Assembly (NCBI GenBank): GCA_002405165.1
Contig: DHLF01000001.1
Location: forward strand, 5,608-29,607
Reading direction: 5' to 3'
Length of the DNA stretch: 24,000 nt
From: Christensenella sp. UBA4675
Lineage (GTDB): Bacteria; Bacillota; Clostridia; Christensenellales; Borkfalkiaceae
The position numbers were made by a program, and so were the translations under genes. The notes beneath the pieces were generated by a model that was not told where the DNA came from, did no database searches, and saw only the letters and a list, made by a program, of their open reading frames with translations. Below, piece after piece: positions 216 to 22,893 of the stretch. Positions within the stretch are counted from its first letter, which is position 1, and every line of letters starts with the position of its first letter.

Positions 216-244
216 TTGACAAATAATATTTAGTCGGATATAAT
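216..244 (+). promoter_or_regulatory. sigma-A type promoter P1 for T-box leader 1
   Basis: TTGACA 216-221, exact 17-nt spacer, TATAAT 239-244, with an A-rich tract upstream. Placed just 5' of the T-box Stem I. Confidence 0.75.
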
Positions 245-249
245 AAAGA

Positions 250-521
250 CAATCTAAATAAAGACTATGACGAAGACGGCTGAAAAAAGTTATTTTCACA
301 GAGAGTCGGTAAAAGGTGAAAGCCGATAAATTGTTTTTTCTCAAAAGCCCATCGCTTCCGAGTCGGAAATCCGAAATTTTTAAAGTAGGCGTTTCCCGTT
401 ATACTGCGTAAACGTGTAGGAATTGTTTGATTCCGTGAGAGGCAACTTTTAGTTGCAATTTGAGTGGTACCGCGAGTAAATTATTACCCGTCTCAAAGAA
501 ATTTGAGGCGGCTATTTTTTT
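250..521 (+). promoter_or_regulatory. T-box riboswitch leader 1 (putative specifier AUC = Ile)
   Basis: GA/K-turn base (GACUAUGACGAAG ... CUUCCGAGUC). AGAGAG box 300-305. Distal-loop GGTGAAA 315-321. Canonical T-box sequence AATTTGAGTGGTACCGCG 457-474 with UGGU bulge 465-468. Intrinsic terminator 488-521 (CCGTCTCAAA/TTTGAGGCGG plus T7), whose 5' arm CTCAAA can instead pair with TTTGAG of the T-box to form the antiterminator. Confidence 0.9.
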
Positions 522-634
522 ACGCTTTTCGTAAATAATACGTAAAGAATTAGAAAATATTTTATAGTGAAACAGCGAAGTTGTAAACGATGAAAAATAA
601 GTTTTGACTTCTTGTAAAAAACAGGAGAAAAAAG

Positions 635-2902
635 ATGGCAGAAGTAGATTCCGAAAAGTTATTGGAAATTGGCACGAGAATTAAAGAAATGCGTGAAATT
701 TTTAACTTATCGCAACAAGACATGGCGACCAAGTGCGAAGTTTCGCTAGAAGATTATTGCGCTTATGAAAACGGAAAAAAAGATTTACCTTTTACGTTTA
801 TTCATAAATGCGCCTTAGCTTTCGGAATAGGCATTACTGACTTATTAGAAGGTAGAAGCGCGCACCTTTCGTCTTATACCGTTACGAGAAAAGGGCAAGG
901 GCAAGAAACCGCAAAAGAAAACGGAATAGAAATTCAAAACCTTGCTCCGCTTTTCCGTAAAAAACTTGCTGAACCTTATTGGGTAAGATACGAATACAGT
1001 GAAAGTTTACAAAATAAACCTATTCATTTAACCAAGCACTCGGGACAAGAATTCGACCTGGTTTTAAAGGGTAGGTTAAAAGTTCAAGTCGGCGATAACG
1101 TCGAATACTTAGACGAAGGCGACAGCATTTATTATAACAGTTCCACACCGCACGGAATGATAGCGGTAGACGGTGAAGAATGTTTATTCGTTGCTGTAGT
1201 GTTGCCAGGTGAAAACGTAGAAGAAAACGTTTTAAGGGAAACGCTTATATCCGCAAGGGGAACGGACGAAAAATTCGTATGTTCTAAATTTATAAACGCA
1301 ACAGAAGACGAAAAGGGCGTTTTAAAAGCGATTGATTTTAACAACGAAGACAAATTTAACTTTGCTTTCGATATTTTAGACGAAATAGCTAAAAAAGAAC
1401 CTGACAAAAGGGCAATGGTTTACGTCGATAAAGACAAAAACGAAAAGTTCTTTACTTTTTCGGATATGAAAAAAGAATCGGCTCGTTCGGCTAACTATTT
1501 TAAATCCTTAGGAATTAAAAAGGGTGACAGGGTAATGTTGGTTCTTAAAAGACATTATCAATTTTGGTTTGCTATTATGGGACTTTGTAAATTAGGCGCG
1601 ATAGCAATTCCCGCAACTAATCAGCTTTTATCCCATGATTTCGAATATAGATTTAACGCCGCAGGCATAAAAGCGATAGTTGCAACCGCCGACGGGGACG
1701 TAGCTCATCAAGTTGATTTAGCGGAAAAAAATTCTCCCACGTTAGAGCTTAAAATACTCGTAAACGGAACGAGAGAAGGTTGGAGAGATTTTAACAGCGA
1801 ATACACTATGTATTCCACTCATTTTTATAGAACGGAGGACACTCCTTGCGGAGATGACTCTATGCTTATGTTCTTTACCAGCGGAACTACGGGATATCCG
1901 AAAATTGCGTGCCATTCGTTTAAATATCCGTTAGGACATTATATAACGGCAAAATATTGGCACGGAGTTTCTCCCGACGGATTGCATTTCACTATTTCCG
2001 ATACGGGTTGGGGAAAAGCTTTGTGGGGAAAATTATACGGACAATGGCTTTGCGAAGGAGCGGTATTCGTTTACGATTTCGACAGATTTTCGGCTTCCGA
2101 CATACTTCCTATGTTTAAAAAGTATAACATTACTACTTTCTGCGCTCCGCCCACTATGCTTCGTATGATGATAAAAGAAGATATTTCGAAATACGACCTT
2201 TCGTCTATTAAACATATGACGACTGCGGGAGAAGCGTTAAACCCCGAAGTTTATCGTCAGTTCGAAAAGGCTACGGGACTTCAAATAATGGAAGGATTCG
2301 GGCAAACGGAAACTACGCTTTCGGTTGCAAACTTAATCGGAAATCCGCATAAAGTAGGTTCTATGGGTAAACCTGTACCGCTTTACGATATGGATATAGT
2401 AGACGAAAACGGAAATAGCGTAGCTGTCGGCGAAACGGGAGAAATCGTAATAAAAACTTCCGATAAAATTCCTTGCGGATTATTTAAAGGATACTATCGT
2501 AACGACGAAAAGACCAAAGAAGTTTGGCACGACGGATATTATCACACGGGCGATACTGCTTGGCGCGACGAAGACGGATTTTTTTGGTACGTCGGCAGAG
2601 TTGACGACGTAATCAAATCTTCGGGATACAGAATAGGGCCGTTTGAAATTGAAAGCGTTATAATGGAACTTCCGTACGTTTTGGAATGCGGAGTAAGCGC
2701 ATATCCCGACGAAGTAAGGGGACAAGTAGTTAAAGCTAGCATTGTTTTGGTAAAAGGTAAAGAAGGAACGGAGGGACTTAAAAAAGAAATTCAAGATTAC
2801 GTTAAAAAACACACCGCTCCTTACAAGTATCCCAGAATCGTAGAATTTAAAACTGAACTTCCTAAAACGATAAGCGGAAAAATTCAAAGAAACAAGTTAT
2901 AA
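635..2902 (+). CDS. HTH(XRE)-cupin-acyl-CoA synthetase fusion, paralog 1 (AMP-forming short/medium-chain fatty acid-CoA ligase)
   Basis: ATG 635 preceded by AGGAG 623-627. N-terminus is an XRE-type HTH (NLSQQDMATKCEVSLEDYCAYENGKK). A cupin barrel follows (HSGQEFDLVLKGRLKV...GDSIYYNSSTPHGMIA). From FNFAFDILD onward it is an adenylate-forming ligase with FTSGTTGYPK, YHTGD, GRVDDVIKSSGYRIGPFEIE and PKTISGKIQR motifs. Confidence 0.93.
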   Translation: MAEVDSEKLLEIGTRIKEMREIFNLSQQDMATKCEVSLEDYCAYENGKKDLPFTFIHKCALAFGIGITDLLEGRSAHLSSYTVTRKGQGQETAKENGIEIQNLAPLFRKKLAEPYWVRYEYSESLQNKPIHLTKHSGQEFDLVLKGRLKVQVGDNVEYLDEGDSIYYNSSTPHGMIAVDGEECLFVAVVLPGENVEENVLRETLISARGTDEKFVCSKFINATEDEKGVLKAIDFNNEDKFNFAFDILDEIAKKEPDKRAMVYVDKDKNEKFFTFSDMKKESARSANYFKSLGIKKGDRVMLVLKRHYQFWFAIMGLCKLGAIAIPATNQLLSHDFEYRFNAAGIKAIVATADGDVAHQVDLAEKNSPTLELKILVNGTREGWRDFNSEYTMYSTHFYRTEDTPCGDDSMLMFFTSGTTGYPKIACHSFKYPLGHYITAKYWHGVSPDGLHFTISDTGWGKALWGKLYGQWLCEGAVFVYDFDRFSASDILPMFKKYNITTFCAPPTMLRMMIKEDISKYDLSSIKHMTTAGEALNPEVYRQFEKATGLQIMEGFGQTETTLSVANLIGNPHKVGSMGKPVPLYDMDIVDENGNSVAVGETGEIVIKTSDKIPCGLFKGYYRNDEKTKEVWHDGYYHTGDTAWRDEDGFFWYVGRVDDVIKSSGYRIGPFEIESVIMELPYVLECGVSAYPDEVRGQVVKASIVLVKGKEGTEGLKKEIQDYVKKHTAPYKYPRIVEFKTELPKTISGKIQRNKL

Positions 2903-2918
2903 AAACAATTAAATATAG

Positions 2919-2947
2919 TTGACAAATTTTTTTCGTGATGATATAAT
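2919..2947 (+). promoter_or_regulatory. sigma-A type promoter P2 for T-box leader 2
   Basis: TTGACA 2919-2924, 17-nt spacer, TATAAT 2942-2947 with a TGn extended -10 (TGA 2939-2941). Lies 17 nt after the stop of paralog 1 with no terminator in between. Confidence 0.75.
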
Positions 2948-2952
2948 AGCGA

Positions 2953-3226
2953 GCAATAAAGACGATGACGAAGAGAACTTATAAACGATACTTTCCAGAG
3001 AAAAAGCGTCAGGTGAGAGCTTTAAGTTAGTTTATAAACGTTTGTAGCTTCCGAGTCGGGAGAAAGAAAGAAGAAATTCCGTAGAATCTCCCCGAAAAGC
3101 GTTGCGTTAAAACGTAGGAATTGATTGATTCCGTAAGTGGCAGTTAAACACTGCAATTTGAGTGGTACCGCGGGTAAAAATGCTCGTCTCAAAGTATCTG
3201 ACTTTGGGGCGAGCTTGTTTTTTTCT
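2953..3226 (+). promoter_or_regulatory. T-box riboswitch leader 2 (putative specifier GUA = Val)
   Basis: Same architecture as leader 1. GACGAUGACGAAG ... CUUCCGAGUC base. AGAGAA 2997-3002. GGTGAGA 3012-3018. T-box AATTTGAGTGGTACCGCG 3155-3172 with UGGU 3163-3166. Terminator 3182-3224 (GCTCGTCTCAAAGT/ACTTTGGGGCGAGC plus T-run). Confidence 0.9.
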
Positions 3227-3250
3227 CTCCCCTAAAAAACGGAGGACGAT

Positions 3251-5545
3251 ATGGAACAGATGACAGGACTTGATTTAAAAATCAAGGAAGTTGCAGGCAG
3301 AATTAAAGAACTTCGCGAAATAGAAGGTCTTTCGCAACAAGATATGGCTTTAAAAACGGACGTATCGCTAGACGAATATCAAAAATGCGAACAAGGCGAA
3401 AGTAACTTAACGTTTGCTTTTATTTACCGTTGTTCTTTAGCTTTAAAGGTAAACGTAACCGATATTATAGAAGGTTATAGTCCCGAATTAAAAGCTTTTA
3501 CGGTAACAAGAAACGGTGCGGGACAAATAGTCAGCAAAGCGCACGGAATGACTTATTACAATATGGCGTACGCATTCCGCAACCGTATTGCAGAGCCGTT
3601 ATTCGTAAAAGCCGTATATAACGACGAAGCGCAGTATAAAGATATAGAACTTACCACTCACGACGGACAAGAATTAGATATAGTTATAAACGGATATTTA
3701 ATGGTTCAAGTCGGAAGTCATAAAGAAGTATTAGGTCCGGGTGATACTATTTATTACGATAGTTCCACTCCGCACGGAATGATAGCCGTAAACGGAAAAG
3801 ATTGCGATTTCTATGCGGTAGTATTAAATCCGTCGGGAGAGCCTATTCCCGAACTTGCAAGTTCTTCTTCGAAAGAAATTAAAGACAAGAAAACGGGATT
3901 TAAGGACGAAAAAGACAGAATTTACAAAAAGTATATCGACGTAGTAGAAAACGAAAACGGTACGCCCGTTTCGATTAAATTTAAAAATACCGAAAAGTTT
4001 AATTTTGCATTCGATTTAGTAGACGCGCTTGCCGAAAGGGAACCCGAAAAACTAGCAATGTTACACGTTTCCAACAATATGACCGAAAGAAGATTTACTT
4101 TTTCGGATATGAAAAAGGAATCTGCCCGTACGGCAAACTACTTTAAATCTTTGGGAATTAAAAAAGGCGACAGAGTAATGCTTGTACTTAAAAGGCATTA
4201 TCAGTTTTGGTTTGCAATGCTTGGCTTAAATAAATTAGGCGCAATTGCAATTCCCGCAGTATATCAATTACAAGAACACGATTTTGAATATCGTTTTAAG
4301 TCTGCGGGCGTAAAAGCTATAGTATGTACGGGGGACGGAGATACCGCTCATCAAATAGATATAGCGTGTCAGAATTGTCCCGACCTTACTATTAAAATAA
4401 TGGTAAACGGAACGAGAGATGGTTGGAGAAATTTCGACGAAGAATACAAAATGTATTCCACTCATTTCGATAGAACCGAAGATACCGCTTGCGGAAACGA
4501 TACTATGCTTATGTATTTCACTAGCGGAACTAGCGGTTATCCTAAAATTGCTGTTCACAACCACAAATACCCGTTAGGGCATTTCCATACGGCAAAATAT
4601 TGGCACGCCGTTGACCCCGAAGGATTACATTTTACTATTTCCGATACGGGCTGGGCAAAAGCAATGTGGGGGAAACTATACGGACAATGGCTAGCGGAAG
4701 CTGCTACTTTCGTTTACGATTTCGATAGGTTCGATGCCGAAAAAATTATGCCTATGTTTGCAAAATATCATATCACTACTTTTTGCGCTCCTCCTACGAT
4801 GCTTCGTATGATGATTAAACAAGATTTATCCAAATACGATTTTTCTTCCGTAAAGCACATGACGACTGCGGGCGAAGCATTAAATCCCGAAGTTTATCGT
4901 CAATTCGAAAAGCTTACGGGGTTACAGATACACGAAGGTTTCGGTCAATCGGAAAGTACTATGATAATAGGAAATATGATTGGCGCCCCGCATAAAATAG
5001 GTTCAATGGGTAAACCTGCGCCTATATACGATATAGACTTATTCGACCACGACGGAAAGAGTGTTCCCGTAGGCGAAACGGGAGAAATAGTAGTAAACGT
5101 TAAAAACGGAGTTCCTTGCGGATTGTTTACGGGGTACTATAAAGACGAAGCAAAAACCAAAGAAGTTTGGCACGACGGTTACTACCACACGGGTGATACC
5201 GCTTGGCGCGACGAAGACGGTTATTATTGGTACGTAGGAAGAGTAGACGACGTTATTAAATCTTCGGGATATAGAATAGGACCGTTCGAAATAGAAAGCG
5301 TTATAATGGAACTTCCGTACGTTTTGGAATGCGGAGTAAGCGCTTGTCCCGACGAAGTTAGGGGACAAATAGTAAAAGCAAGCGTAGTTCTCGTTAAAGG
5401 CGTTGAAGGTACTGAAGAATTAAAAAAAGAAATTCAAAATTACGTTAAAGAAAAAACCGCTCCTTATAAGTATCCCAGAATAGTAGTATTTAAGGACGAG
5501 TTACCTAAAACCGTTAGCGGAAAAATAATGAGGAATAAGCTTTAA
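3251..5545 (+). CDS. HTH(XRE)-cupin-acyl-CoA synthetase fusion, paralog 2
   Basis: ATG 3251 after GGAGG 3241-3245. Same three-module layout: HTH GLSQQDMALKTDVSLDEYQKCEQGES, cupin HDGQELDIVINGYLMV...GDTIYYDSSTPHGMIA, ligase motifs FTSGTSGYPK, YHTGD, GRVDDVIKSSGYRIGPFEIE, PKTVSGKIMR. The ligase part is highly similar to paralog 1. The HTH-cupin part is much more diverged. Confidence 0.93.
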   Translation: MEQMTGLDLKIKEVAGRIKELREIEGLSQQDMALKTDVSLDEYQKCEQGESNLTFAFIYRCSLALKVNVTDIIEGYSPELKAFTVTRNGAGQIVSKAHGMTYYNMAYAFRNRIAEPLFVKAVYNDEAQYKDIELTTHDGQELDIVINGYLMVQVGSHKEVLGPGDTIYYDSSTPHGMIAVNGKDCDFYAVVLNPSGEPIPELASSSSKEIKDKKTGFKDEKDRIYKKYIDVVENENGTPVSIKFKNTEKFNFAFDLVDALAEREPEKLAMLHVSNNMTERRFTFSDMKKESARTANYFKSLGIKKGDRVMLVLKRHYQFWFAMLGLNKLGAIAIPAVYQLQEHDFEYRFKSAGVKAIVCTGDGDTAHQIDIACQNCPDLTIKIMVNGTRDGWRNFDEEYKMYSTHFDRTEDTACGNDTMLMYFTSGTSGYPKIAVHNHKYPLGHFHTAKYWHAVDPEGLHFTISDTGWAKAMWGKLYGQWLAEAATFVYDFDRFDAEKIMPMFAKYHITTFCAPPTMLRMMIKQDLSKYDFSSVKHMTTAGEALNPEVYRQFEKLTGLQIHEGFGQSESTMIIGNMIGAPHKIGSMGKPAPIYDIDLFDHDGKSVPVGETGEIVVNVKNGVPCGLFTGYYKDEAKTKEVWHDGYYHTGDTAWRDEDGYYWYVGRVDDVIKSSGYRIGPFEIESVIMELPYVLECGVSACPDEVRGQIVKASVVLVKGVEGTEELKKEIQNYVKEKTAPYKYPRIVVFKDELPKTVSGKIMRNKL

Positions 5546-6207
5546 TGAATTATAAAAGAATAACTTTACTGTGCGGTCATTACGGTAGCGGTAAAACCAA
5601 CGTAGCCGTAAATATGGCGTTCGATTTAAAAGGCAGTCACGATAAAGTCGCAGTTGCGGATTTAGATATAGTAAATCCATACTTTCGTAGTAAAGACAGT
5701 AGCGAAGATTTTAAAAAAAGAGATATAAGGCTAATCGTTTCGGATTACGCCAACACTAATTTGGATATACCCGCGCTTCCGCAAGATATGTACGCGATAA
5801 CGGACGATAAAAGTCTTAAATGTGTTTTAGATATAGGCGGGGACGATAGAGGAGCTTTGGCACTTGGCAGACTTGCCCCTAAAATCGTAGAAGAAAACGA
5901 TTACGAAATGTTTATGGTAATAAACAAGTTTAGACCATTAACGCCCGACGCTTTATCCACGCTAGAAGTTATGAGAGAAATAGAATACGCAGGCGGAATA
6001 AGATTTACGGGTTTAATAAACAATTCTAATTTAGGGAACGAAACCACTGGCGAAGAGGTAATAAAAAGTATGGAATACGCTAGGGAATTAGAAAGAATAA
6101 GCGGAGTAAAATTAAAGCTTACAACTTGTAAAGCCGACCTATACGACGATTTAAAGGATAAAATAGAAAATTTATTTCCTTTAAATTTACAAAAGAAAAT
6201 AAATTAA
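5545..6207 (+). CDS. P-loop NTPase (SIMIBI-type, MinD/CooC-like), function unknown
   Basis: ATG overlaps the upstream stop (TAATG 5543-5547). Walker A is GHYGSGKT near the N-terminus and Walker B-like is VLDIGGDD. 220 aa, with no membrane segments apparent. Confidence 0.75.
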   Translation: MNYKRITLLCGHYGSGKTNVAVNMAFDLKGSHDKVAVADLDIVNPYFRSKDSSEDFKKRDIRLIVSDYANTNLDIPALPQDMYAITDDKSLKCVLDIGGDDRGALALGRLAPKIVEENDYEMFMVINKFRPLTPDALSTLEVMREIEYAGGIRFTGLINNSNLGNETTGEEVIKSMEYARELERISGVKLKLTTCKADLYDDLKDKIENLFPLNLQKKIN

Positions 6208-6242
6208 AGGGCTTGCCCGAAAAAATAAAGGAGAAAACTTTT

Positions 6243-6449
6243 ATGGCAAAATTAACGTTTAAAACCGATAACTGTAAAGGTTGCGGTTTGTGTGTGGACG
6301 TTTGTCCGAAAGGCGTTTTAGCTTTATCTAACGATAAGATAAACAAAAAAGGACATCATCCCGTAGAAGCAGTTAATCCCGACAAATGTATAGCTTGCGC
6401 ATTTTGCGCTATTATGTGTCCCGATTGTATAATTAAAGTTGAAAGGTGA
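6243..6449 (+). CDS. 2-oxoacid:ferredoxin oxidoreductase delta subunit (2x[4Fe-4S] ferredoxin-like)
   Basis: Two CxxCxxCxxxCP motifs (CKGCGLCVDVCP, CIACAFCAIMCP). I prefer ATG 6243 (AAGGAG 6228-6233, 9-nt spacing) over the TTG 6213 used by the ORF track. TGA stop 6447-6449. Confidence 0.88.
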   Translation: MAKLTFKTDNCKGCGLCVDVCPKGVLALSNDKINKKGHHPVEAVNPDKCIACAFCAIMCPDCIIKVER

Positions 6450-6453
6450 TATT

Positions 6454-7512
6454 ATGGCAGAAAAAGTATTGATGAAAGGAAACGAAGCTATTGCCGAAGC
6501 CGCTATTAAAGCGGGGTGCAGACACTATTTCGGCTATCCTATTACGCCACAAACGGAAATTGCCGCGTATATGGCTAAAAAAATGCCAAAGATAGGCGGA
6601 ACGTTTTTACAGGCTGAAAGTGAAATTGCCGCAATCAACATGGTATACGGCGTTGCAAGTGCAGGAAAGAGAGGTATGACTTCTTCTTCAAGCCCGGGAA
6701 TTTCTCTTAAAGGAGAAGGTCTTTCTTATATGGCAGGTGCGGATTTACCTTGTTTAGTTGTAAACGTACAAAGGGGCGGTCCGGGACTTGGCGGAATTCA
6801 ACCCAGTCAGTCTGACTATTTTCAGGCAACGCGCGGTGGCGGACACGGCGATTATCATATGATAGTTTTAGCTCCTGCGTCCGTTCAAGAAATGGCGGAT
6901 TTAACCATAAAAGCGTTTGATTTAGCGGATAAATATCGTATGACCGCTATGATTCTCGCGGACGGTACTATGGGACAAATGATGGAACCCGTTTCGCTCG
7001 ATTTCGACGTTGCTCCCGCTCCCGAAAAGCCTTGGGCTACTACGGGAACTCAAATGAAAAGGGCGCATAACATAATAAATTCGTTATCGCTTGTTCCCGA
7101 AGAGTTAGAACAACTTAATATCGCAAGGTATAAAAAGTACAAGCAAATAGAAGAAAACGAAACTATGTATGAAGAATACTTAATGGACGACGCGGAAATT
7201 GCTATTTGCGCGTTCGGAATTGCCGCAAGGGTATCTAAAAACGCGATAGACGAAGCAAGGAAAAAGGGAATAAAAGTAGGTATGATAAGACCTATAACGC
7301 TTTGGCCGTTCCCGCAAGCTCCGTTTAAAAAGGCGTTAAAAACCGTTAAGCATTTTATCAGCGTAGAACTTTCTATGGGACAAATGATAGAAGACGTAAA
7401 ACTCGCAACGGAATGTAAAGTTCCCGTAACGCTTTGCAACAGAGTAGGCGGAATGATAACTACTCCCGAACAAGTTTTACAAGCAATAGAAAAGGCTTAT
7501 AAGGAGGTATAA
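6454..7512 (+). CDS. 2-oxoacid:ferredoxin oxidoreductase alpha subunit
   Basis: N-terminus MAEKVLMKGNEAIAEAAIKAGCRHYFGYPITPQTEI is the typical OFOR alpha signature. ATG 6454 with GAAAGG 6441-6446 is preferred over TTG 6439, which would overlap the delta gene. Confidence 0.9.
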   Translation: MAEKVLMKGNEAIAEAAIKAGCRHYFGYPITPQTEIAAYMAKKMPKIGGTFLQAESEIAAINMVYGVASAGKRGMTSSSSPGISLKGEGLSYMAGADLPCLVVNVQRGGPGLGGIQPSQSDYFQATRGGGHGDYHMIVLAPASVQEMADLTIKAFDLADKYRMTAMILADGTMGQMMEPVSLDFDVAPAPEKPWATTGTQMKRAHNIINSLSLVPEELEQLNIARYKKYKQIEENETMYEEYLMDDAEIAICAFGIAARVSKNAIDEARKKGIKVGMIRPITLWPFPQAPFKKALKTVKHFISVELSMGQMIEDVKLATECKVPVTLCNRVGGMITTPEQVLQAIEKAYKEV

Positions 7513-7513
7513 T

Positions 7514-8269
7514 ATGGTAGTAAAAGAAAAACCGCACGCTTTATGCGACGTTCCGTTGCATTATTGTCCCGGTTGCACGCACGGGATAATTCATAGATTA
7601 GTAGCGGAAGTAATAGACGAACTCGGAATAGAAGGGAAAACCGTAGGAATTGCCCCCGTAGGTTGTTCGGTTATGGCGTATAACTATTTTAATTGCGATA
7701 TGATAGAGGCGGCTCACGGAAGAGCTCCCGCAGTAGCGACGGGCGTAAAAAGAGCTGACCCCGACAATTTGGTAGTATTTACTTATCAAGGGGACGGAGA
7801 TTTAGCTTCTATCGGTATGGCTGAAACCGTACATGCGGCTACTAGAAACGAAAACATAACCGTAATATTTATAAACAACGCAATTTACGGAATGACGGGC
7901 GGACAAATGGCTCCCACGTCGCTTCCCGGACAAGTAACGCAAACTTCTCCTTACGGAAGAGATGTAAAATTATGCGGATATCCTATCAGAGTTTGCGAAA
8001 TGCTTTCCGAACTAGAAGGACCCGAATATTTGGCAAGAGTTACCGTTGACAACGTTAAACACGTCAACGAAGCTAAAAAAGCTATAAAGAAAGCGTTTAT
8101 GAACCAAATAGAAGGCAAAGGATTTTCTTTGGTAGAAGTTATTTCTTCTTGTCCTACTAACTGGGGTATGACGCCACAAAACGCTCTTAAATGGATAGAA
8201 GAAAAAATGATTCCTTATTATCCTTTGGGGGTATATAAAGACAGAAGCGCGGAAAAGGAGGCAAAATAA
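7514..8269 (+). CDS. 2-oxoacid:ferredoxin oxidoreductase beta subunit (TPP / Fe-S binding)
   Basis: AAGGAGG 7501-7507 precedes the start. Cys cluster HYCPGCTHG...GCS. TPP motif YQGDGDLASIGMAE...NNAIYGMTGGQ. The start is 1 nt after the alpha stop. Confidence 0.9.
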   Translation: MVVKEKPHALCDVPLHYCPGCTHGIIHRLVAEVIDELGIEGKTVGIAPVGCSVMAYNYFNCDMIEAAHGRAPAVATGVKRADPDNLVVFTYQGDGDLASIGMAETVHAATRNENITVIFINNAIYGMTGGQMAPTSLPGQVTQTSPYGRDVKLCGYPIRVCEMLSELEGPEYLARVTVDNVKHVNEAKKAIKKAFMNQIEGKGFSLVEVISSCPTNWGMTPQNALKWIEEKMIPYYPLGVYKDRSAEKEAK

Positions 8270-8802
8270 TGGCTACTACTCAATTTTTGTTTTCGGGTTT
8301 TGGCGGACAAGGTATTTTGTTTTCAGGTAAGTTTTTAGCTTATAAAGGACTTATGGAAAACAAAAACGTAAGTTGGCTTCCTTCTTACGGACCTGAAATG
8401 AGAGGCGGTACTGCTTCTTGTTCGGTTATCGTAAGCGACAGTTTAGTAGGCTCGCCTATCGTATCTAACCCCGACGTACTTATTGCAATGAATCTTCCTT
8501 CGCTCGATAAATTCGAAAAAAGCGTAAAAAGTGGCGGAATGATTTTTCTAGATTCCACTTTAATCGAAAGAAAAGTCGTTAGGGACGACGTAAAGGTGTT
8601 TTATATTCCCGCAACGGCGCTTGCCAGTGAAAACAATATGTCTACGCTTGCAAATATGATTATAATGGGAAAAGTTTTGAAAGAGCTTAACGAATTTACG
8701 GACGAATCTGTCGGCGACGCGTTAAAAAAGGTAATATCCGCAAAACACGCCGATATGATGGAAATCAACCGTAAGGCTTTGGAAATCGGAGCTAATTTAT
8801 AA
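8269..8802 (+). CDS. 2-oxoacid:ferredoxin oxidoreductase gamma subunit
   Basis: FSGFGGQGILFSGKFLA N-terminal signature of OFOR gamma subunits. The start overlaps the beta stop (TAATG 8267-8271). Confidence 0.88.
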   Translation: MATTQFLFSGFGGQGILFSGKFLAYKGLMENKNVSWLPSYGPEMRGGTASCSVIVSDSLVGSPIVSNPDVLIAMNLPSLDKFEKSVKSGGMIFLDSTLIERKVVRDDVKVFYIPATALASENNMSTLANMIIMGKVLKELNEFTDESVGDALKKVISAKHADMMEINRKALEIGANL

Positions 8803-8937
8803 AAAATATATAAGTTTTTGGTTTAAAAAATGGGTTTTACGTTAGGTATTTGCTTTTAAAGCGTGATTTGTAAAATCTTATATAAATTATAAAATCGTAA
8901 AATGTATATTTAATCAAAATAAATAAAGGAGTTTATT

Positions 8938-10002
8938 ATGGAAATTAAATTTGAAAAAACGGCTTGTCCTAAACAAAAGCCCGACCCTGCTACTTTGGGT
9001 TTTGGAAAAATATTTACCGACCATATGTTTATAATGGACTATACGCCCGATAAAGGTTGGCACGACGCAAGAATCGTTCCTTTCGGAAATATTAGTCTTC
9101 ATCCTGCGTCCACCGTTTTACATTACGGTTCTGAAATTTTCGAAGGCTTAAAGGCTTATCGTAAAAAAGACGGTACGGTTCAAATGTTCAGACCTATCGA
9201 AAACGTAAGAAGAATGAATAATTCGGCTGAAAGACTATGTTTACCCCAAATTCCCGAAGATTTAGCTATGGAAGTATTAACTAAATTCGTTGAAACCGAA
9301 AAAGATTGGACTCCCGATGCAAAGGGAACGTCTTTATATATAAGACCTTTTATGTTTGGTAACGACGAAACTTTGGGCGTACACTCTGTTAAACACGCAA
9401 CCTTTATGATAATAACTTCGCCCGTAGGCAGTTATTATAAAGAAGGTATTAACCCCGTTAAAATTATGATAGAAGATAAAGACGTAAGAGCTGTTCGTGG
9501 CGGTACGGGATATGCTAAATGCGGTGGTAACTATGCGGCTAGTAACAGAGCGGGCGAAAAAGCGGAAGAAAAAGGATATTCGCAAGTTTTATGGCTTGAC
9601 GGCGTTGAAAGAAAGTATATAGAAGAAGTCGGCGCGATGAACGTTATGTTTAAAATAAACGGAGAAATCATAACGCCTATGCTTTCTGGTTCTATTCTTC
9701 CCGGAATTACGAGAAAATCTTGCATAGAAGTATTAAAGGACGAAGGATATAAAGTAACCGAAAGACTTTTATCCGTAGACGAACTCGAAAAAGCTATTGA
9801 AGACGGAACGCTCGAAGAAGCTTGGGGATGCGGAACCGCCGCGGTAGTTTCTCCTATCGGAGAGCTTTGTTATAAAGGTAAAAAGTGCATAATCAACAAC
9901 GGAAAAATCGGAGAAGTTACTCAACATTTATATGATACTTTAACGGGTATTCAGTGGGGAGAAAAAGAGGATAAATTCGGTTGGACTTATCCTTTAAAAT
10001 AA
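8938..10002 (+). CDS. ilvE: branched-chain amino acid aminotransferase (fold-type IV PLP enzyme)
   Basis: AAAGGAG 8925-8931 then ATG 8938. Long-form BCAT features: FTDHMF, HYGSEIFEGLKAY, LYIRPFMFG, GGTGYAKCGGNYAAS, GITR, GTAAVVSP. There is no intrinsic terminator in the 135-nt spacer upstream. Confidence 0.92.
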   Translation: MEIKFEKTACPKQKPDPATLGFGKIFTDHMFIMDYTPDKGWHDARIVPFGNISLHPASTVLHYGSEIFEGLKAYRKKDGTVQMFRPIENVRRMNNSAERLCLPQIPEDLAMEVLTKFVETEKDWTPDAKGTSLYIRPFMFGNDETLGVHSVKHATFMIITSPVGSYYKEGINPVKIMIEDKDVRAVRGGTGYAKCGGNYAASNRAGEKAEEKGYSQVLWLDGVERKYIEEVGAMNVMFKINGEIITPMLSGSILPGITRKSCIEVLKDEGYKVTERLLSVDELEKAIEDGTLEEAWGCGTAAVVSPIGELCYKGKKCIINNGKIGEVTQHLYDTLTGIQWGEKEDKFGWTYPLK

Positions 10003-10030
10003 TAGATTTAATACAGATTCAGATAGTTAA

Positions 10031-10061
10031 AAAGAGCTTGGCAATTTGCCAAACTCTTTTT
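10031..10061 (+). terminator. intrinsic terminator ending the acs-OFOR-ilvE block
   Basis: Hairpin AAAGAGCTTGGC / GCCAAACTCTTT (one mismatch, 5-nt loop) running into a T tract, about 30 nt after the ilvE stop. Confidence 0.7.
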
Positions 10062-10136
10062 AGCGGTTTATGTGAAAAATTTTATAGTACTAAATTTTAG
10101 CATTATAACGCTTTTTTTACGCGTATTGGGAGAAGA

Positions 10137-12199
10137 ATGCAAAAGGAAAAAATAATAGGCTTTGCAAAAAAACCGTTCCGTTTTCTTTAATTTTATTATT
10201 TTCGATTTTGGGAACGTACATAGTGTTTTTAAAAGGTCTATTTAAAGGCGACGATTATTATTTTCACGCCACGGATATCTACGAATGGTATAATGCAATT
10301 TTAAATGGAAAAAAAGTTTCACCTATAAGTGAAAATTTAGCAATGGGGCTAGGTGTAGGAAATAGATTGTTTTATTCTCCTTTATCGCATTTAACCGTCG
10401 TTCTAGTAGGTTTATTTTTAAAAATTTTTAATATTTCCTTAATTGCTTCATTTAAAATCGTAATAATTTTAATGATATTTATTTCGGGGGTATTTACGTA
10501 CTTTTTTGCTTTGCGTTTTACGTCTAATAATAAAAATGCGTCTTTGTTTACTGTGCTTTGTTTTGTAATATTTCCGTATAGAGCTTTTAATATTTTTAGA
10601 AGATTTGCCTTTGCCGAAGCCTTTGCTATGACGTTTTTGCCTTTATTTTTTATGGGATTATATGATATTTTACATTTTAAGGAAAAGGTAAACGTAACGG
10701 CTTTTTTAGAAGTTGTTTTGGGCGGAGTATTTCTCGTCTTATCTCATAATATAACCGCTTTATACGCGTTTATTTTCGGAGTTATATATATTCTAATAAA
10801 TATAAACGAGTTGATTAAATCTCTTAAATTTAAATATTACGTTCTTTTATGCGTTGTTTCGATAATACTAATAATAGGAATATCTTCTATTGCGCTTTTC
10901 ACTCAATTTGAGCTTTTAAAAGACAAATTATATATTGTAAGCAATAAAGATGCAATGGGTACAAGCATTTCTTCTGTTACTTCTCAACATGCGTTTTGGA
11001 AAATTTTTTCACATTCGGGATTTGGTTTTGGCAGTATTAAAAATTTTGCAAGATTTATATGGTTTATAATTTCTTGTGTAATCACAATTTTAACCGATAC
11101 TTATATTAGGAAAATTGAAAAATTAAAAACTGCGTATAGATATTTGATTTTGTTTTTAATTCTATTCGTATTTAATATTTTTTTTATAAATTCAGCTACT
11201 ATTTTAGCCGTAATTGTTTTTTATTTTTTATACGTGTACGTCGATTATTCAATAAAAAAGGGAAAACAAAAAGAGATTTACGTTGAAAAAAGCATTTTAA
11301 AAGATAAATTATTTTGGTTTTCGATTTCCGCAATTCTAATTTGTTTAGTTTTTATGATATTTGGATTTGTTTGGGAAATATTACCGAGTTTTATGTTAAA
11401 TATACAATTCCCTTGGAGATTGTGGTCGTTTATACAGCTGTTTTTGTCGATAATTGTGGGACTTATTTGTTATTATTTTAATAAAAAACAAATACTTTTT
11501 ACATTTCTTTCAATATTTTTTGCAACTTGTATAATTTGCAACTTGTATAATTTGCAACAAAGGGATAATTGCAAAAGAAGAACAATTTAAAAATAGAGAT
11601 GAGTATTCCTATTACAGTACTTTTGGTTGGTCTTATACGTTAAATTACGACTTATATAAAGCAAAATATTCGTTAGGTTTTAAAAACGACTACATACCGC
11701 AAATATTTTTATTAGAAGATTATATACCTAAATATTCAACTTCTTTGTATAATGATATTAAAAAGTCAATATTTTTAGATGAAGAAGATATGTTTATTGC
11801 GGGCGAAAAATATTCTTTTAATCCCGTAGTTTTAACGGGAAGCGGAACGATAAAATATTAAAAAGAAAAACGCCTTATTATTTAATAAAAGTAAAAACAA
11901 CGCAAGAAACAAAAATACAAATGCCGTTGTTTTATTATTTGGGGTATAGCATAAACTTAAAAACGAACGAAATTAAAACAGTTTCAGCGGAAAAGGTAGA
12001 CGGACTGATTTCTTTCGATATTTTAGCAGGAAATTACGAAATTACGATAAATTATAAAGGAACGACTTTAAGAAAAACTTCTATAATATTAAACGTTACT
12101 TGTTCAAGCGTTGTAGTCGGATATATAATTTTTAACTTCGTATCTAAAAAAATAAAAAGAAAAAGTGTTTTAAATAATAAAGTTGCAACTTCCGCATAA
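10137..12199 (+). pseudogene. large polytopic membrane protein (GT-C / YfhO-like glycosyltransferase-type, tentative), reading frame broken at three or more sites
   Basis: The ATG 10137 frame (MQKEKIIGFAKK) stops after an A7 run (10166-10172). One extra A would join it to the 460-aa ORF frame (TVPFSLILLFSILGTYIVFLKG...DDYYFH). That ORF ends at 11590 just after a 16-bp tandem duplication. Removing one copy opens a stop-free frame 11553-11858 (KGIIAKEEQFKNRDEYSYYSTFGWSYTLNY...FNPVVLTGSGTIKY). A further 1-nt shift near A4 11852-11855 joins it to the 11921-12199 ORF (..YYLIKVKTTQETKIQMPLFYYLGYS..., C-terminal TM). There are many hydrophobic segments throughout. Confidence 0.7.
11519..11558 (+). 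repeat. 16-bp direct tandem duplication (about 2.5 copies of TGCAACTTGTATAATT) inside the membrane-protein gene
   Basis: 11521-11536 and 11537-11552 are identical, followed by the partial copy TGCAAC. 16 is not a multiple of 3, so the duplication shifts the frame. Confidence 0.95.
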
Positions 12200-12273: not shown

Positions 12274-13539
12274 TTATTTGCTATTTTTTTTAGTTCTTCC
12301 TATTTCCGTATTGTCTTTTTTTCTAGATTGCAGTGTTTCTATCGGATTTTTTTTCGTTTCAAATCGGTAGTCCTGACCAAATTCTTTTATATGGTTTTCT
12401 ATTACCTTATGGCTCGGAAGCGTTTTTCCGTTTTTAACTACGTGTTTATTGTATTTAAAGAAATCGTCTTTTGGACTTAAAGTTTCAATCGATTGATATT
12501 GTTCTCTAACTTTCGTATAATTTACGGTTTTTGCTAAAACTTCTCTTATATAGTCGATATTTCCTTCGAAATGTAAAGTTTCGGGGAAATCGCCGCCGCA
12601 AGGATATAACGCTTGCCAAGGCTTGCCTTCGTATTTTTCAAGCAGTCCCGCAACAAATTGTAAATGCCCGCATTCTTCTAAATAATGGCGATAAAAAATT
12701 TCTCTTATATATTTATCGGTTTCATCTGCGTAGCAGGAATAATATAAATAACATTCGGTATATTCGTGCATAAGCCAGCTTTCCAATTTAGAGCACGTCG
12801 TATCGATTAAACTGCCGTATTCCGTTACGTGCTGTTCTTCTATCATGGCTATTTCGCTATAAAGTTTTCTTCCCGTCTCACTTGGGTGAAAACCAGCAAT
12901 ATTCATATAGTAATTCATAGTTTGTTGTTCTCCAGCCGTTATAATATTTACTACAAGTTTGGTAAACGGGTCGGAAATTTCCGCCGAAATATGGCGGTTT
13001 ATCGCGTCGTACGGGTGTCTTGGTTCGCTTATAGTCGGTCTTCCGGGGGTAATTTCGGTGTAACCGCCGGTAAGTGTGTTTGCGTCTATTCCTTGTTCGC
13101 TTTCTAAAAGATTTGCAAACCTATATAGATGGTCAAAATCTTCTAGCAATGCAAAATCAAGAGCTTGTTTTACGTAAGAATCTTTAACGTGTTTAGCAAG
13201 TATCGCGGTTAAATCGACAGCTAATTGTTCGTAGCCGATGGTCGTTTCAAGGTCTGTTTCGTCGATAGGTTTTAAACCTGAAATAATTTTTTGCTGTTGT
13301 TGTTCGTGTCTACGAATTAAAGAAATATCGCGTCTTAATTCGTTGTCGTTGCAAGTTCTTGAAAACTGGTGTAAAAACCAGTTTTGTTCGAATTCTGCGC
13401 CGTTTAACAAAATTATTCTTGTTTTTGTGTACGGCAAAGTTGTTTTTTTGTCGTAGGGAACGGGGCTGTAATCGTCAACCGTTGCAAAATCCTTTACGGA
13501 TATTGCGTTTTTTTCTAAAAATGGATTTACTTTATTCAT
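12274..13539 (-). CDS. ferritin-like (di-iron carboxylate four-helix-bundle) superfamily protein, function unknown
   Basis: I prefer the start at 13539 (MNKVNPFLEK; AGGAG on the minus strand at 13549-13553) over the longer ORF-track start. There are two ExxH motifs (AMIEEQHVTEY, YLEECGHLQF), each preceded by a helix carrying a conserved Glu (AGEQQTMNYY, LMHEYTECYLYY). This is the ligand pattern of di-iron ferritin-like proteins. Confidence 0.6.
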   Translation of the reverse strand: MNKVNPFLEKNAISVKDFATVDDYSPVPYDKKTTLPYTKTRIILLNGAEFEQNWFLHQFSRTCNDNELRRDISLIRRHEQQQQKIISGLKPIDETDLETTIGYEQLAVDLTAILAKHVKDSYVKQALDFALLEDFDHLYRFANLLESEQGIDANTLTGGYTEITPGRPTISEPRHPYDAINRHISAEISDPFTKLVVNIITAGEQQTMNYYMNIAGFHPSETGRKLYSEIAMIEEQHVTEYGSLIDTTCSKLESWLMHEYTECYLYYSCYADETDKYIREIFYRHYLEECGHLQFVAGLLEKYEGKPWQALYPCGGDFPETLHFEGNIDYIREVLAKTVNYTKVREQYQSIETLSPKDDFFKYNKHVVKNGKTLPSHKVIENHIKEFGQDYRFETKKNPIETLQSRKKDNTEIGRTKKNSK

Positions 13540-13626
13540 AAAAAAATTCTCCTTTCTTAAATAATTTCCAAGTTTAAAAATTTTAATCAAAAAATAAGAA
13601 AAAAATGGTAAATTTTTAAAAAAATA

Positions 13627-13671: not shown

Positions 13672-14544
13672 ATGATTTATACGACTTTTGAATTAAACGA
13701 ATTAGTAAAAAAAGAAAATATTTTTAAAGACGATAATTACTATTCTCAAATAAATATAATAGCTTCTCATATTTTATCAGACTCTTTAAAACCTATTGTG
13801 CTTGTAAACGGACCTTCAGGAGCCGGAAAAACAACTTTTACAAAAAATCTAGCAAAAATAATTAGGGCGAGCGGAAGAAATTGTTACTATATTTCTATGG
13901 ACAATTATTTTAACTCTATCAATCCGCAGGAATTTAAAAATAAAGTACCTGATTACGAATATCCTTTAAGAGTTGATTTTAAACTTTTAAATAAGCATAT
14001 TGCCATGTTGTTAAACTGTCAAAAAATAGATATGCCTACTTTTAATTTCGAAAAATCGGTAAGGAGCGATAAAACGATAGAAATTACTCGTGAAAAGGAT
14101 GATATTGTAATAATAGAAGGTATACATTCTTTTAACGATAATTATTTAAAGTGCGATAATGCGTTTAGGGTATTTATAGATGTTTTCGACAGCGTTAAAA
14201 ACGGGCAAACGGAAATTTCTTCTAGGGAAATAAGGCTATTAAGAAGAATATCAAGAGATTCTTTATCTAGGGGCAGGGATTTTTCGCAAACGATAAGTCA
14301 ATTAAAAAATGTGTCAAACGGAGAAGATTTATACATTAAGCCTTTTTTAAAGAAAGTTGATTTTTCCGTAAATACGTTTATGCCTTATGAACTTGGGTGC
14401 TACAAAAATAAACTATACGATAACTTAAAAGAAAACAATGCCGACGAATTAAAAACTGTTTTAGCGGTTTTGTCGGGAATAGAGAAAGTCGAAATGGATA
14501 AAATAGAAGAAAATTCACCTATAAAGGAATTTATACAATGTTAG
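13672..14544 (+). CDS. uridine kinase / phosphoribulokinase-family P-loop kinase-like protein
   Basis: Walker A NGPSGAGKTT. IVIIEGIH and RLLRRISRDSLSRGR resemble the Udk lid/LID-arginine region. Extra N- and C-terminal extensions compared with a minimal Udk. Confidence 0.7.
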   Translation: MIYTTFELNELVKKENIFKDDNYYSQINIIASHILSDSLKPIVLVNGPSGAGKTTFTKNLAKIIRASGRNCYYISMDNYFNSINPQEFKNKVPDYEYPLRVDFKLLNKHIAMLLNCQKIDMPTFNFEKSVRSDKTIEITREKDDIVIIEGIHSFNDNYLKCDNAFRVFIDVFDSVKNGQTEISSREIRLLRRISRDSLSRGRDFSQTISQLKNVSNGEDLYIKPFLKKVDFSVNTFMPYELGCYKNKLYDNLKENNADELKTVLAVLSGIEKVEMDKIEENSPIKEFIQC

Positions 14545-15296
14545 ATGCGGTTATTACGGGTGCAAGCTCGGGAATGGGGGAAGAATTTGCAAAAAAAATC
14601 GACCAAATGGGATACGGAAGAATATTTTTAATTGCAAGGAACAAAACTAAATTAGAAGAGTTGTCTAAAACGCTAAAAACGCCTTGCGTTATAGCAAGTT
14701 GCGATTTAACTAAAAAAGATTCTTTTGATTATTTAAAGTCGGTTTTTGAGGAAAACAAAGTAAAAATAGGTTTACTTTTAAACGGTGCGGGTTACGGTAT
14801 ATTTAATGAGTTTACTTCTACCGATATTGCCGATATAAACGGAATGATAGATTTAAACGATAAAGCTTTAGTTGAAATTACGTATTTATCGCTTAGTTAT
14901 ATGCAAGAAAACGCAAAAATAATAAATATAGCGTCTATTGCGTCTTTCGAACCTATTCCTTACGGAGCGATATACGGAGCTAGTAAAAGTTTTGTATTAA
15001 GCTTTTCAAGAGCATTAAATATGGAGCTTAAAAAAAATAAAATACGTGTTTTAGCGGTTTGTCCTTATTGGACTGCTACAAGTTTTTTCGATAGGGGTAA
15101 TAAAAACGGAGTAATAAAAAAATTCGATTGTATGTATTCCCCCAAATTTGTTGTAAACAAAACGATAAAAGCATTAAAAGGGAAAAAAGATTATGTCGTT
15201 ACGGGAACATACGCTAAATTCGTTAGATTTTTAGCAAAAATTCTTCCTAATAAGTGGATTATGAAAATGTTCATGAAACAACAATCGTTAAAATAA
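14538..15296 (+). CDS. short-chain dehydrogenase/reductase (classical SDR)
   Basis: TGASSGMG cofactor motif, NGAG, catalytic Ser region and YGASK (YxxxK). The start overlaps the upstream stop by 7 nt. Confidence 0.85.
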   Translation: MLDAVITGASSGMGEEFAKKIDQMGYGRIFLIARNKTKLEELSKTLKTPCVIASCDLTKKDSFDYLKSVFEENKVKIGLLLNGAGYGIFNEFTSTDIADINGMIDLNDKALVEITYLSLSYMQENAKIINIASIASFEPIPYGAIYGASKSFVLSFSRALNMELKKNKIRVLAVCPYWTATSFFDRGNKNGVIKKFDCMYSPKFVVNKTIKALKGKKDYVVTGTYAKFVRFLAKILPNKWIMKMFMKQQSLK

Positions 15297-15315
15297 TTAA
15301 AAGAGAGAAAAAAGT

Positions 15316-15948
15316 ATGTACAAATTTATAGCATTTGATTTAGACGGAACATTAGTAAACACATTTCCTTATATATTATCTTCGTATAAGTACGCATTAG
15401 TTCAAGTTTACGGAAAAGCGATAGAATCGGAGGATAGTATAAAATCAAAAATAGGTAAACCTATTGCGGAATTCTTTAAAGACTATCCCGAAAAGGACAG
15501 ACAAAGATTATATGAATTATATTCAACTAATAACGACGCGATTCAAAGTAAAGGCGTGCCGTTTTTTTCGGGTGTAAAAGAAATGCTTAAAACGCTTAAA
15601 GAAAACGTAAAAGTAGGATTAGTTACGTCTAAAAGACGCAAGCCATTGGAAGAATTTTTAATAAAAGAAAAATTAGATAATTTTTTTGACGTTGTAGTGG
15701 CAAAAGAAGATACGGTTTTAAATAAACCTAACGGAGAACCTATCGAAAAGGCAATAGAGCTTGCAGGTGTAACCGCCAAAGACGCATTGTACGTAGGGGA
15801 CGCCAAATACGACGTTTTATGTGCACATAATGCAAACGTAGATGCGTGCATAGTCGGTTGGAATGCTTTCGGAAAAGAATATTTTGAGAAATACAAGCCC
15901 GAATATTACGCTGAAAGCTGTCAAGATATTATCAATTTATCAAAATAA
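15316..15948 (+). CDS. HAD-superfamily phosphatase (phosphoglycolate phosphatase / PpaX-like)
   Basis: Motif I FDLDGTLVNT, motif II VTSK, motif III/IV K...VGDAKYD. Confidence 0.85.
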   Translation: MYKFIAFDLDGTLVNTFPYILSSYKYALVQVYGKAIESEDSIKSKIGKPIAEFFKDYPEKDRQRLYELYSTNNDAIQSKGVPFFSGVKEMLKTLKENVKVGLVTSKRRKPLEEFLIKEKLDNFFDVVVAKEDTVLNKPNGEPIEKAIELAGVTAKDALYVGDAKYDVLCAHNANVDACIVGWNAFGKEYFEKYKPEYYAESCQDIINLSK

Positions 15949-22793: not shown

Positions 22794-22870
22794 CGGGGTG
22801 TAGCGCAGTTTGGTAGCGCACGTGGTTTGGGACCATGGGGTCGGGAGTTCGAGTCTCTTCACCCCGACCA
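22794..22870 (+). tRNA. tRNA-Pro (anticodon UGG)
   Basis: Acceptor CGGGGTG/CACCCCG, anticodon loop TTTGGGA, T-loop TTCGAGT, encoded CCA. The full cloverleaf folds by hand. Confidence 0.92.
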
Positions 22871-22893
22871 AATACATACACCTTTATATATAA

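Follow-up and report, generated by a model that had tools for sequence, protein, structure and literature searches.

A T-Box-Controlled Gene Block with Regulator-Fused Acyl-CoA Ligases, Predicted to Form Isoleucine and Valine from Branched Short-Chain Acids in Gut and Rumen Clostridia

Organization of the Gene Block

The 24,000-nucleotide (nt) stretch of contig DHLF01000001.1 of Christensenella sp. UBA4675 analysed here, hereafter the window, carries a block of eight genes in which two acyl-coenzyme A (CoA) ligases, a P-loop NTPase, the four subunits of a 2-oxoacid:ferredoxin oxidoreductase and a branched-chain amino acid (BCAA) aminotransferase stand behind T-box leaders, which are read through when the cognate tRNA is uncharged. 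From comparative sequence analysis it is quite probable that this operon turns 2-methylbutyrate and isobutyrate into isoleucine (Ile) and valine (Val) under shortage of these two amino acids. The features of the block are the following, all coordinates here and below being positions in the window and protein lengths being given in amino acids (aa).

216–244, + strand: promoter P1, TTGACA-17-TATAAT (12/12 consensus match)
258–521, + strand: T-box leader 1, specifier AUC (Ile) at 351–353, T-box sequence at about 458–474 (Rfam RF00230)
635–2902, + strand: ligase 1, helix-turn-helix (HTH, XRE) + cupin + AMP-forming acyl-CoA synthetase, 755 aa (Pfam, NCBIfam)
2919–2947, + strand: promoter P2, TTGACA-17-TATAAT with TG-extended -10 (12/12 consensus match)
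2956–3224, + strand: T-box leader 2, specifier GUA (Val) at 3044–3046 (Rfam RF00230)
3251–5545, + strand: ligase 2, HTH + cupin + AMP-forming acyl-CoA synthetase, 764 aa (Pfam, NCBIfam)
5545–6207, + strand: SIMIBI-class P-loop NTPase, 220 aa (Pfam CbiA, 30 bits)
6243–6449, + strand: oxidoreductase delta subunit, 2x[4Fe-4S] (Fer4_7 and Fer4 matches)
6454–7512, + strand: oxidoreductase alpha subunit, VorB type, 352 aa (POR_N + PFOR_II, NCBIfam NF005507)
7514–8269, + strand: oxidoreductase beta subunit, thiamine-diphosphate-binding (TPP_enzyme_C)
8269–8802, + strand: oxidoreductase gamma subunit (Pfam POR)
8938–10002, + strand: BCAA aminotransferase IlvE (Aminotran_4, NF009897, TIGR01123)
10038–10062, + strand: weak terminator-like hairpin after ilvE (hairpin 10038–10052, 6-bp stem with 3 G-C pairs, T-rich tail)

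The original prediction, an earlier reading of this DNA, had described a single same-strand gene block with two ligases, a P-loop NTPase, oxidoreductase subunits and an aminotransferase, and this description holds: all eight open reading frames (ORFs) lie on the + strand, the gene content is confirmed by Pfam, and the junctions are as it gave them, with an overlap of a single base at 5545 and at 8269 and a 1-nt gap at 7513. Regarding gene starts, the ATG at 6243 is used by public gene callers for the delta gene (68 aa) and a TTG at 6213 is also open; the alpha ORF has start candidates at 6439 and 6454. Several metagenome contigs and DJNO01000008.1 (GCA_002436875.1) encode a protein 100% identical to ligase 1 in an unchanged gene order, and members of its cluster are labelled "Clostridiales bacterium" or "Oscillospiraceae bacterium" in public sources.

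Relatives were sought with the aligned fusion ligases in a collection of one genome per species; this gave 80 loci of at least 580 confirmed stretches. These loci belong to 80 different assemblies, almost all of them metagenome-assembled genomes from rumen or gut with Acutalibacteraceae, Oscillospiraceae, Ruminococcus, Eubacteriales or Christensenellaceae labels.

T-Box Leaders and Transcription Signals

Matches to Rfam RF00230 at 258–498 and 2956–3194 bear out the claim that two T-box leaders head the block. Leader 1, with 102 bits, exceeds the gathering score of 93; leader 2, with 91.7 bits (E = 1.7e-19), lies 1.3 bits under the same gathering score, and all hallmark T-box motifs are present in it and conserved in relatives. 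In both cases a strong terminator hairpin followed by a T-run, at 488–511 in leader 1 and at 3182–3214 in leader 2, overlaps the 3' half of the T-box helix, making terminator and antiterminator mutually exclusive.

The specifiers were read in the register given by the Rfam alignment, in which the codon is followed by 1 nt and by the 3' strand of the basal Stem I helix (4 nt); in the window this corresponds to AUC-G-CUUC at 351–358 and GUA-G-CUUC at 3044–3051. Orthologous leaders were collected from the 80 other genomes by a hidden Markov model built on both window leaders, the helix partner being located from the 5' strand, and with this model nearly every locus shows a leader before ligase 1 and another before ligase 2. 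Of the ligase-1 leaders, 66 of 69 have ATC as specifier, and 49 of 51 ligase-2 leaders carry GTA (43) or GTC (6), a variation of the Val codon that is synonymous. The antiterminator bulge is UGGU in all leaders, fitting an A73 discriminator. BCAA specifiers, which had been predicted, are thus what the covariance-model alignment gives, AUC (Ile) and GUA (Val), both conserved across genomes. Since the two specifiers differ, the leaders are not redundant, leader 1 being predicted to sense tRNA-Ile and leader 2 tRNA-Val.

Other specifier frames (CAU/UAU, or UCN, which would stand for serine) are ruled out: the bases preceding AUC vary while AUC is constant, one register holds across Ile, Val and leucine (Leu) leaders, and the UGGU bulge agrees with A73. 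An atypical case is found in a relative with a single ligase (L058), where a T-box at about 12329–12600, before the P-loop gene, has a specifier that reads GCA-U or AUC-U depending on the register.

Both promoters are kept in relatives; in particular, the TTGACA box and the extended -10 (GTGnTAnAAT) of P1 are found upstream of the ligase-1 leader in 68 of them, and P2 is conserved in 51. P2 begins 17 nt past the stop codon of ligase 1 and, because no terminator separates ligase 1 from P2, transcripts started at P1 are expected to enter leader 2. Further downstream, the earlier statement that no intrinsic terminator lies between 3226 and 10031 proved correct: this interval holds only 5–6-bp terminator-like hairpins, and their number is at chance level (16, compared with 11.6 +/- 3.0 in shuffled sequence). 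The hairpin at 10038–10052 is not compelling on its own as the terminator of the block. The spacer from the leader-1 terminator to the ligase-1 start (512–634, about 120 nt) contains a palindrome, TTTACG-N5-CGTAAA; the same spacer is only 20–40 nt long in relatives, and the long palindromic version is specific to the source genome.

Fusion Ligases

The two ligases are 67% identical over their full length and carry about 230 extra N-terminal residues, encoded at 635–1330 in ligase 1 and at 3251–3960 in ligase 2, in which Pfam recognizes an HTH and a cupin domain (ligase 1: HTH_19, 38.7 bits vs a threshold of 30.2, and Cupin_2, 42.3 vs 27.2; ligase 2: HTH_3, 27.8 vs 23, and Cupin_2, 36.1 vs 27.2). 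AMP-binding and AMP-binding_C are present in both proteins (Pfam E-values 4e-66 and 6e-20), and the catalytic A10 lysine motif PKTISGKIQR is located near the C-terminus.

The best NCBIfam model for both ligases is MbcS, and in its synthetase portion ligase 1 shows 53% identity (515 residues, 628 bits) to Macs of Methanosarcina acetivorans (PDB 3ETC). Macs prefers 2-methylbutyrate, with which the thioester is completed, many other acyl-adenylates being released (PMC10455477), and the MbcS of Staphylococcus aureus is selective for 2-methylbutyrate and isobutyrate and poor with isovalerate (PMC10026030).

The 134 fusion ligases extracted from the loci form an Ile-leader clade and a Val-leader clade, with a mean identity of 72–74% within and 64% between the clades. 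Fifteen positions are conserved within and different between them, 13 of which are in the HTH-cupin part and 2 in the ligase part. The former include E95/A97, I98/M100, I100/Y102, K110/R112 and Y115/L117, most being 100% fixed per clade; the latter are Gly460/Ala469 (100% in each clade) and Gly475/Ala484 (Ile/Val clade). Gly460/Ala469 is the sole fully discriminating position of the ligase domain, Gly460 being invariant in the Ile clade and Ala469 in the Val clade, and Gly460 aligns with a Gly of Macs directly after the conserved Trp of the GW motif. In acetyl-CoA synthetases the two positions that follow this Trp presumably line the acyl pocket, and we take Gly460/Ala469 to map there. If this mapping is correct, the pocket of the Val-linked ligase would be smaller by one methyl group and would therefore fit isobutyrate as against 2-methylbutyrate, which also disfavours propionate for the Ile-linked ligase. 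Furthermore, the Trp aligned to residue 260 of the Macs chain, presumably the critical Trp259 of the literature, is conserved in the window ligases. Because of the identity to Macs, the T-box specifiers and the Gly/Ala difference between the clades, 2-methylbutyrate is the predicted substrate of ligase 1 and isobutyrate that of ligase 2.

A different assignment would have ligase 1 activate propionate, from which the oxidoreductase would produce 2-oxobutyrate for the ordinary IlvBNCD route to Ile; anaerobes are known to reach Ile by carboxylating propionyl-CoA reductively to 2-oxobutyrate, and the leader of ligase 1 would read Ile under either model. Macs does form propionyl-adenylate, but the CoA ligation is the step that it completes with 2-methylbutyrate (PMC10455477), and MbcS favours alpha-branched acids (PMC10026030). 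Moreover, Gly in the Ile clade and Ala in the Val clade imply a larger pocket in the Ile-linked paralogue, the opposite of what activation of propionate predicts. This route is therefore unlikely, and 2-methylbutyrate remains the favoured substrate of ligase 1.

Oxidoreductase and Aminotransferase

The delta, alpha, beta and gamma subunits make up a complete set with thiamine-diphosphate and Fe-S domains (Fer4_7, POR_N + PFOR_II, TPP_enzyme_C and POR). The alpha subunit reaches 549.6 bits with NCBIfam NF005507, the VorB subfamily (cut-off 399), compared with 242 bits for the 2-oxoglutarate (KorA-type) model (cut-off 579) and 103 for the archaeal PorA model (cut-off 550). As it passes the VorB model and fails the KOR and POR models by far, the alpha subunit is of neither the 2-oxoglutarate nor the pyruvate type, in line with the original prediction. 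The solved chains nearest to the alpha subunit are the alpha subunit of a Pyrococcus 2-keto acid oxidoreductase and two 2-oxoglutarate enzymes; for beta, gamma and delta, the only matches are to generic 2-oxoacid models and stay under the respective cut-offs. IlvE passes two equivalog cut-offs, with 487 bits vs 307 for NF009897 and 405 vs 250 for TIGR01123 (ilvE_II). A match to Rfam IS128 inside the alpha gene (24.6 bits vs a gathering score of 80) is attributed to chance.

An aminotransferase with a VOR is also the core of the oxidative branch in Clostridium sporogenes, Clostridioides difficile and Blautia (PMC2903421, PMC13285125), and from these two components the block might be taken for a catabolic, Stickland-type cluster for BCAA fermentation. 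This is very improbable: catabolic clusters conserve ATP by a phosphate acyltransferase and an acyl kinase, whereas here two ligases consume ATP, and the genes are gated by starvation-sensing T-boxes. The expectation that a catabolic oxidoreductase would not be paired with an AMP-forming ligase is in this way sustained by the BCAA-fermenting clusters, which carry the phosphate acyltransferase and kinase instead (PMC2903421, PMC13285125), and an anabolic role of the block is preferred.

Conservation of the Module and Linkage to LeuA

Synteny was evaluated by tblastn with the eight window proteins, and the counts refer to those loci whose sequence extends 9.5 kb or more beyond ligase 1 (n = 50). 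The neighbourhood is conserved, as had been proposed for testing in related genomes: the series P-loop–delta–alpha–beta–gamma is present in 50/50 loci, two ligases in 42/50, and ilvE in 40/50, where it is terminal in 31 and lies between ligase 2 and the P-loop gene in 9. In the single-ligase loci (n = 8) an Ile-clade ligase precedes the genes of the P-loop protein and the oxidoreductase; four of these loci (L038, L050, L073 and L079) show the Ile leader as the only one detected, with none intervening, and two (L040 and L058) have a second T-box between the ligase and the P-loop gene.

The commonest gene after the module is of the LeuA type (HMGL-like + LeuA_dimer) and is found downstream in 14 loci. 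In each of the two loci inspected it is preceded by a third T-box with the specifier CUC (Leu; 123 and 114 bits), T-box and gene together lying at 19367–21058 in L010 and at 17321–19020 in L029, so that an Ile/Val/Leu trio of leaders results where the Leu T-box and the LeuA-type gene adjoin the module. L019 and L007 are also listed with a CUC (Leu) T-box and a LeuA-type gene directly after ilvE. LeuA consumes 2-oxoisovalerate, the expected product of the carboxylation of isobutyryl-CoA. Judged from gene order, a linked LeuA-type gene under a Leu T-box makes the context plainly anabolic.

The flanks also bear on the propionate route considered above, against which it counts that no linked ilvBNCD genes are present in any flank examined. 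A further reading, considered a little less probable than the propionate route, is that the ligases import acids as branched acyl-CoA primers for branched-chain fatty acids, with IlvE and the oxidoreductase working oxidatively in the manner of Bkd. MbcS, the best NCBIfam match of the ligases, has exactly such a role in S. aureus (PMC10026030), and an incorporation of branched volatile acids into the lipids of ruminococci is known (Allison et al. 1962, cited in PMC7709123). However, the degradation of Ile and Val under starvation-sensing T-boxes would be counter-productive, the commonest downstream neighbour is the LeuA-type gene under Leu T-box control, and no fab genes are linked in the flanks examined. 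The synthesis of amino acids is thus retained as the main role of the block, and the acyl-CoAs made by the ligases could serve both amino acids and lipids.

Proposed Pathway and Its Regulation

In the proposed scheme, uncharged tRNA-Ile would cause leader 1 to let transcription from P1 into ligase 1, and uncharged tRNA-Val would cause leader 2 to pass the transcripts from P2, together with those arriving from P1, into the genes from ligase 2 through IlvE. The ligases would spend ATP, releasing AMP and pyrophosphate, to convert 2-methylbutyrate (ligase 1) and isobutyrate (ligase 2) into the corresponding CoA thioesters. The oxidoreductase, of VOR type, would then use reduced ferredoxin to work in reverse and carboxylate these acyl-CoAs to 3-methyl-2-oxopentanoate and 2-oxoisovalerate, and IlvE would transaminate the former to Ile and the latter to Val. 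In many relatives 2-oxoisovalerate would also supply the neighbouring LeuA-type enzyme under Leu T-box control; Leu is probably served via 2-oxoisovalerate and LeuA, and not via isovalerate. The presence of two ligases and not three can be explained in the same terms, because the substrates of the Macs/MbcS group are alpha-branched and the Val branch can also provide Leu. The starvation-induced route from acid to acyl-CoA, 2-oxoacid and amino acid that had been predicted for this locus is in this way supported by comparative genomics.

The synthetic direction is suggested by three independent kinds of evidence, by the starvation-sensing T-boxes with BCAA codons, by the AMP-forming ligases and by the downstream LeuA-type gene. 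It finds parallels in other systems: an AMP-forming ligase beside the indolepyruvate enzyme of Bacteroides has been argued to mark biosynthesis, and the VOR of methanogens is thought to run in reverse, with a biosynthetic role (PMC13285125).

Several points weigh against this interpretation. The assignment to VOR is a family-level one and concerns the alpha subunit only; according to a 2026 study, the known VORs share a similarity cluster with a (hydroxy)phenylpyruvate enzyme (PMC13285125), so that the family alone leaves the substrate unfixed, and it is the context that would fix it here. The ligases score 440 and 443.5 bits with the MbcS model, whose equivalog cut-off is 850, and they are consequently regarded as related to MbcS, within the Macs/MbcS group, and not as MbcS equivalogs. 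The oxidoreductase is reversible, and its direction is inferred from regulation and neighbours. In the two-ligase loci, furthermore, the genes for the oxidoreductase and IlvE are placed under the Val leader alone, with the consequence that limitation of Ile alone should raise ligase 1 and not the downstream steps; either basal or leaky expression supplies enough of the downstream products, or Ile and Val normally become limiting together. Finally, the module may supplement de novo synthesis instead of acting as a salvage route.

HTH-Cupin Domains and P-Loop NTPase

The nearest non-fused relatives of the HTH-cupin part are stand-alone regulators of about 185 aa with a matching architecture and 34–40% identity. 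An XRE HTH followed by Cupin_2 is common to the N-termini of the window ligases and to PuuR-type regulators; the PuuR equivalog level is not reached by the HTH-cupin part (21.9 bits vs 211). The crowding of clade-specific residues into this part suggests that the ligand, and perhaps the DNA site, differ from one paralogue to the other, and the HTH-cupin domains are probably devoted to paralogue-specific sensing of a small molecule, to DNA binding or to both. As ligand of the cupin, either the acid or the amino acid is conceivable. No conserved operator or palindrome was found in the 68 and 51 aligned promoters beyond the -35, the extended -10 and an upstream A-tract; a regulatory role of these domains accordingly stays conjectural. 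Together with the T-boxes they may form a two-input gate, in which the charging of tRNA reports demand and the cupin reports supply or product.

Distant fusion ligases (N-terminal part, 41–47% identity) occur in partly different contexts. In L084 (1438–7978) a distant tandem pair of HTH-cupin-ligases lies downstream of an AUC T-box and upstream of a class I/II aminotransferase, and the 9.6-kb contig contains no oxidoreductase. In L085 (129–3152) a single distant fusion is located in an unrelated context, where a SAM-I/IV riboswitch precedes small ORFs.

The P-loop protein is CbiA/ParA-like, exceeding the Pfam CbiA threshold of 25.4 bits, and is annotated in public sources as hypothetical or MinD-like. 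It contains the Walker A motif GHYGSGKT and the conserved motifs ADLDIVNPYFR, DxGGDDRGA and NNSNL. No solved structure is close by sequence; an AlphaFold2 model (predicted local distance difference test score, pLDDT, 86) has the GTPases of the signal recognition particle system (Ffh, FtsY) as best Foldseek matches and HypB lower, at a template-modelling score of about 0.55 and a probability of 1.0, which are fold matches at class level only. A role as Fe-S ATPase of the NifH or Mrp/NBP35 type is ruled out, as no cysteine is conserved among 61 orthologues.

The P-loop gene is directly followed by the delta gene in 59/59 loci, and this constant position points to the protein as a functional partner of the oxidoreductase. 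Our best guess is that it is a dedicated assembly or accessory factor of this enzyme, as is probable from its position; it could also couple the hydrolysis of nucleotide to the uphill carboxylation. The joint proposal that the HTH-cupin domains are paralogue-specific sensors and that the NTPase is a new accessory factor of an anabolic VOR is tentative, and in this combined form rather doubtful.

Other Genes in the Window

The remainder of the window contains genes of varied functions. After ilvE, 10208–11590 (+) encodes a hydrophobic, apparently membrane-bound protein of 460 aa with no Pfam match, which is not kept beside the module in other genomes, and 12274–13590 (-) encodes a 438-aa protein that also has no Pfam match. 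Three abutting or overlapping genes at 13672–15948 (+) code for a protein of the phosphoribulokinase/uridine kinase family, a short-chain dehydrogenase and a HAD hydrolase. They are followed at 15951–18680 (+) by a 909-aa UvrD/REP-type helicase in which an RNase_T/DEDDh 3'-5' exonuclease is inserted at residues 579–732, and at 18860–22174 (+) by a 1104-aa protein with GDSL lipase/esterase and InlB B-repeat (Flg_new_2) domains, probably a surface-anchored esterase judging by this domain composition. Six closely packed tRNA genes at 22794–23393 (+) are Pro(TGG), Met(CAT), Asp(GTC), Phe(GAA), Thr(TGT) and Tyr(GTA).

Significance and Comparison with Known Systems

Branched volatile fatty acids have been known since the 1960s as growth factors of fibre-degrading rumen bacteria and are used as feed additives; through the operon this nutritional trait of rumen bacteria, so far vaguely defined in its genes and their control, would be traced to a gene set. 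The gene set can be scored in sequence and would predict which gut and rumen Clostridia rebuild Ile and Val from cross-fed acids, and Leu where a LeuA-type gene is linked, with a bearing on predictions of auxotrophy in metabolic models of uncultured Oscillospiraceae and Acutalibacteraceae. In addition, the two natural sets of paralogues, each consisting of T-box, sensor and ligase and differing in predicted specificity, would be useful for the study of specificity evolution.

The proposed chemistry, from acid to acyl-CoA, to 2-oxoacid by a ferredoxin-dependent VOR and to the amino acid by transamination, is the same as that of the reductive carboxylation in rumen bacteria and methanogens. In the labelling work of Allison, Bryant and Robinson, branched volatile fatty acids were reportedly carboxylated reductively to BCAAs in rumen bacteria, and the MetaCyc pathway "L-isoleucine biosynthesis V" and the anabolic VOR of Methanothermobacter are classical references for this pathway. 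The classical rumen work defined fluxes and not bacterial genes or their regulation, whereas here an operon with ligases, T-boxes, fusions and an NTPase is described. As to the fusions, BirA likewise joins a DNA-binding domain to an adenylate-forming enzyme and acts as an enzyme-repressor. With the clusters of Blautia hydrogenotrophica, C. sporogenes and C. difficile the block shares an aminotransferase and a four-subunit oxidoreductase of VOR type; in contrast, those catabolic clusters contain ATP-yielding enzymes of the Ptb/Buk type and are induced by amino acids, while the window block has ATP-consuming ligases and is predicted to be gated by uncharged tRNA.

With respect to Prevotella, the reverse reaction was described in a 2020 paper as "not proven yet" (PMC7709123). 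The ligase subfamily is shared with Macs and MbcS, both characterized enzymes favouring alpha-branched C4/C5 acids (PMC10455477, PMC10026030); unlike these, the window ligases possess an HTH and cupin N-terminus, occur as Ile- and Val-linked paralogues and are associated with the synthesis of amino acids rather than lipids. The pairing of ligase and oxidoreductase is the same as that of the Bacteroides indolepyruvate oxidoreductase (IOR) with an AMP-forming arylacetate-CoA ligase; the IOR system has aromatic substrates and belongs to another oxidoreductase family, and a T-box, a fusion or a P-loop partner is not reported for it (PMC13285125). Searches of open-access full texts gave no account of the operon, of a VOR under T-box control, of HTH-cupin-ligase fusions or of the P-loop partner, and such genes are not mentioned in two published T-box surveys. 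In comparison with this open-access literature, the chemistry proposed for the block is classical, and what is new is the gene set with its control by two T-boxes, the fusion of ligases to regulator domains and the accompanying NTPase.

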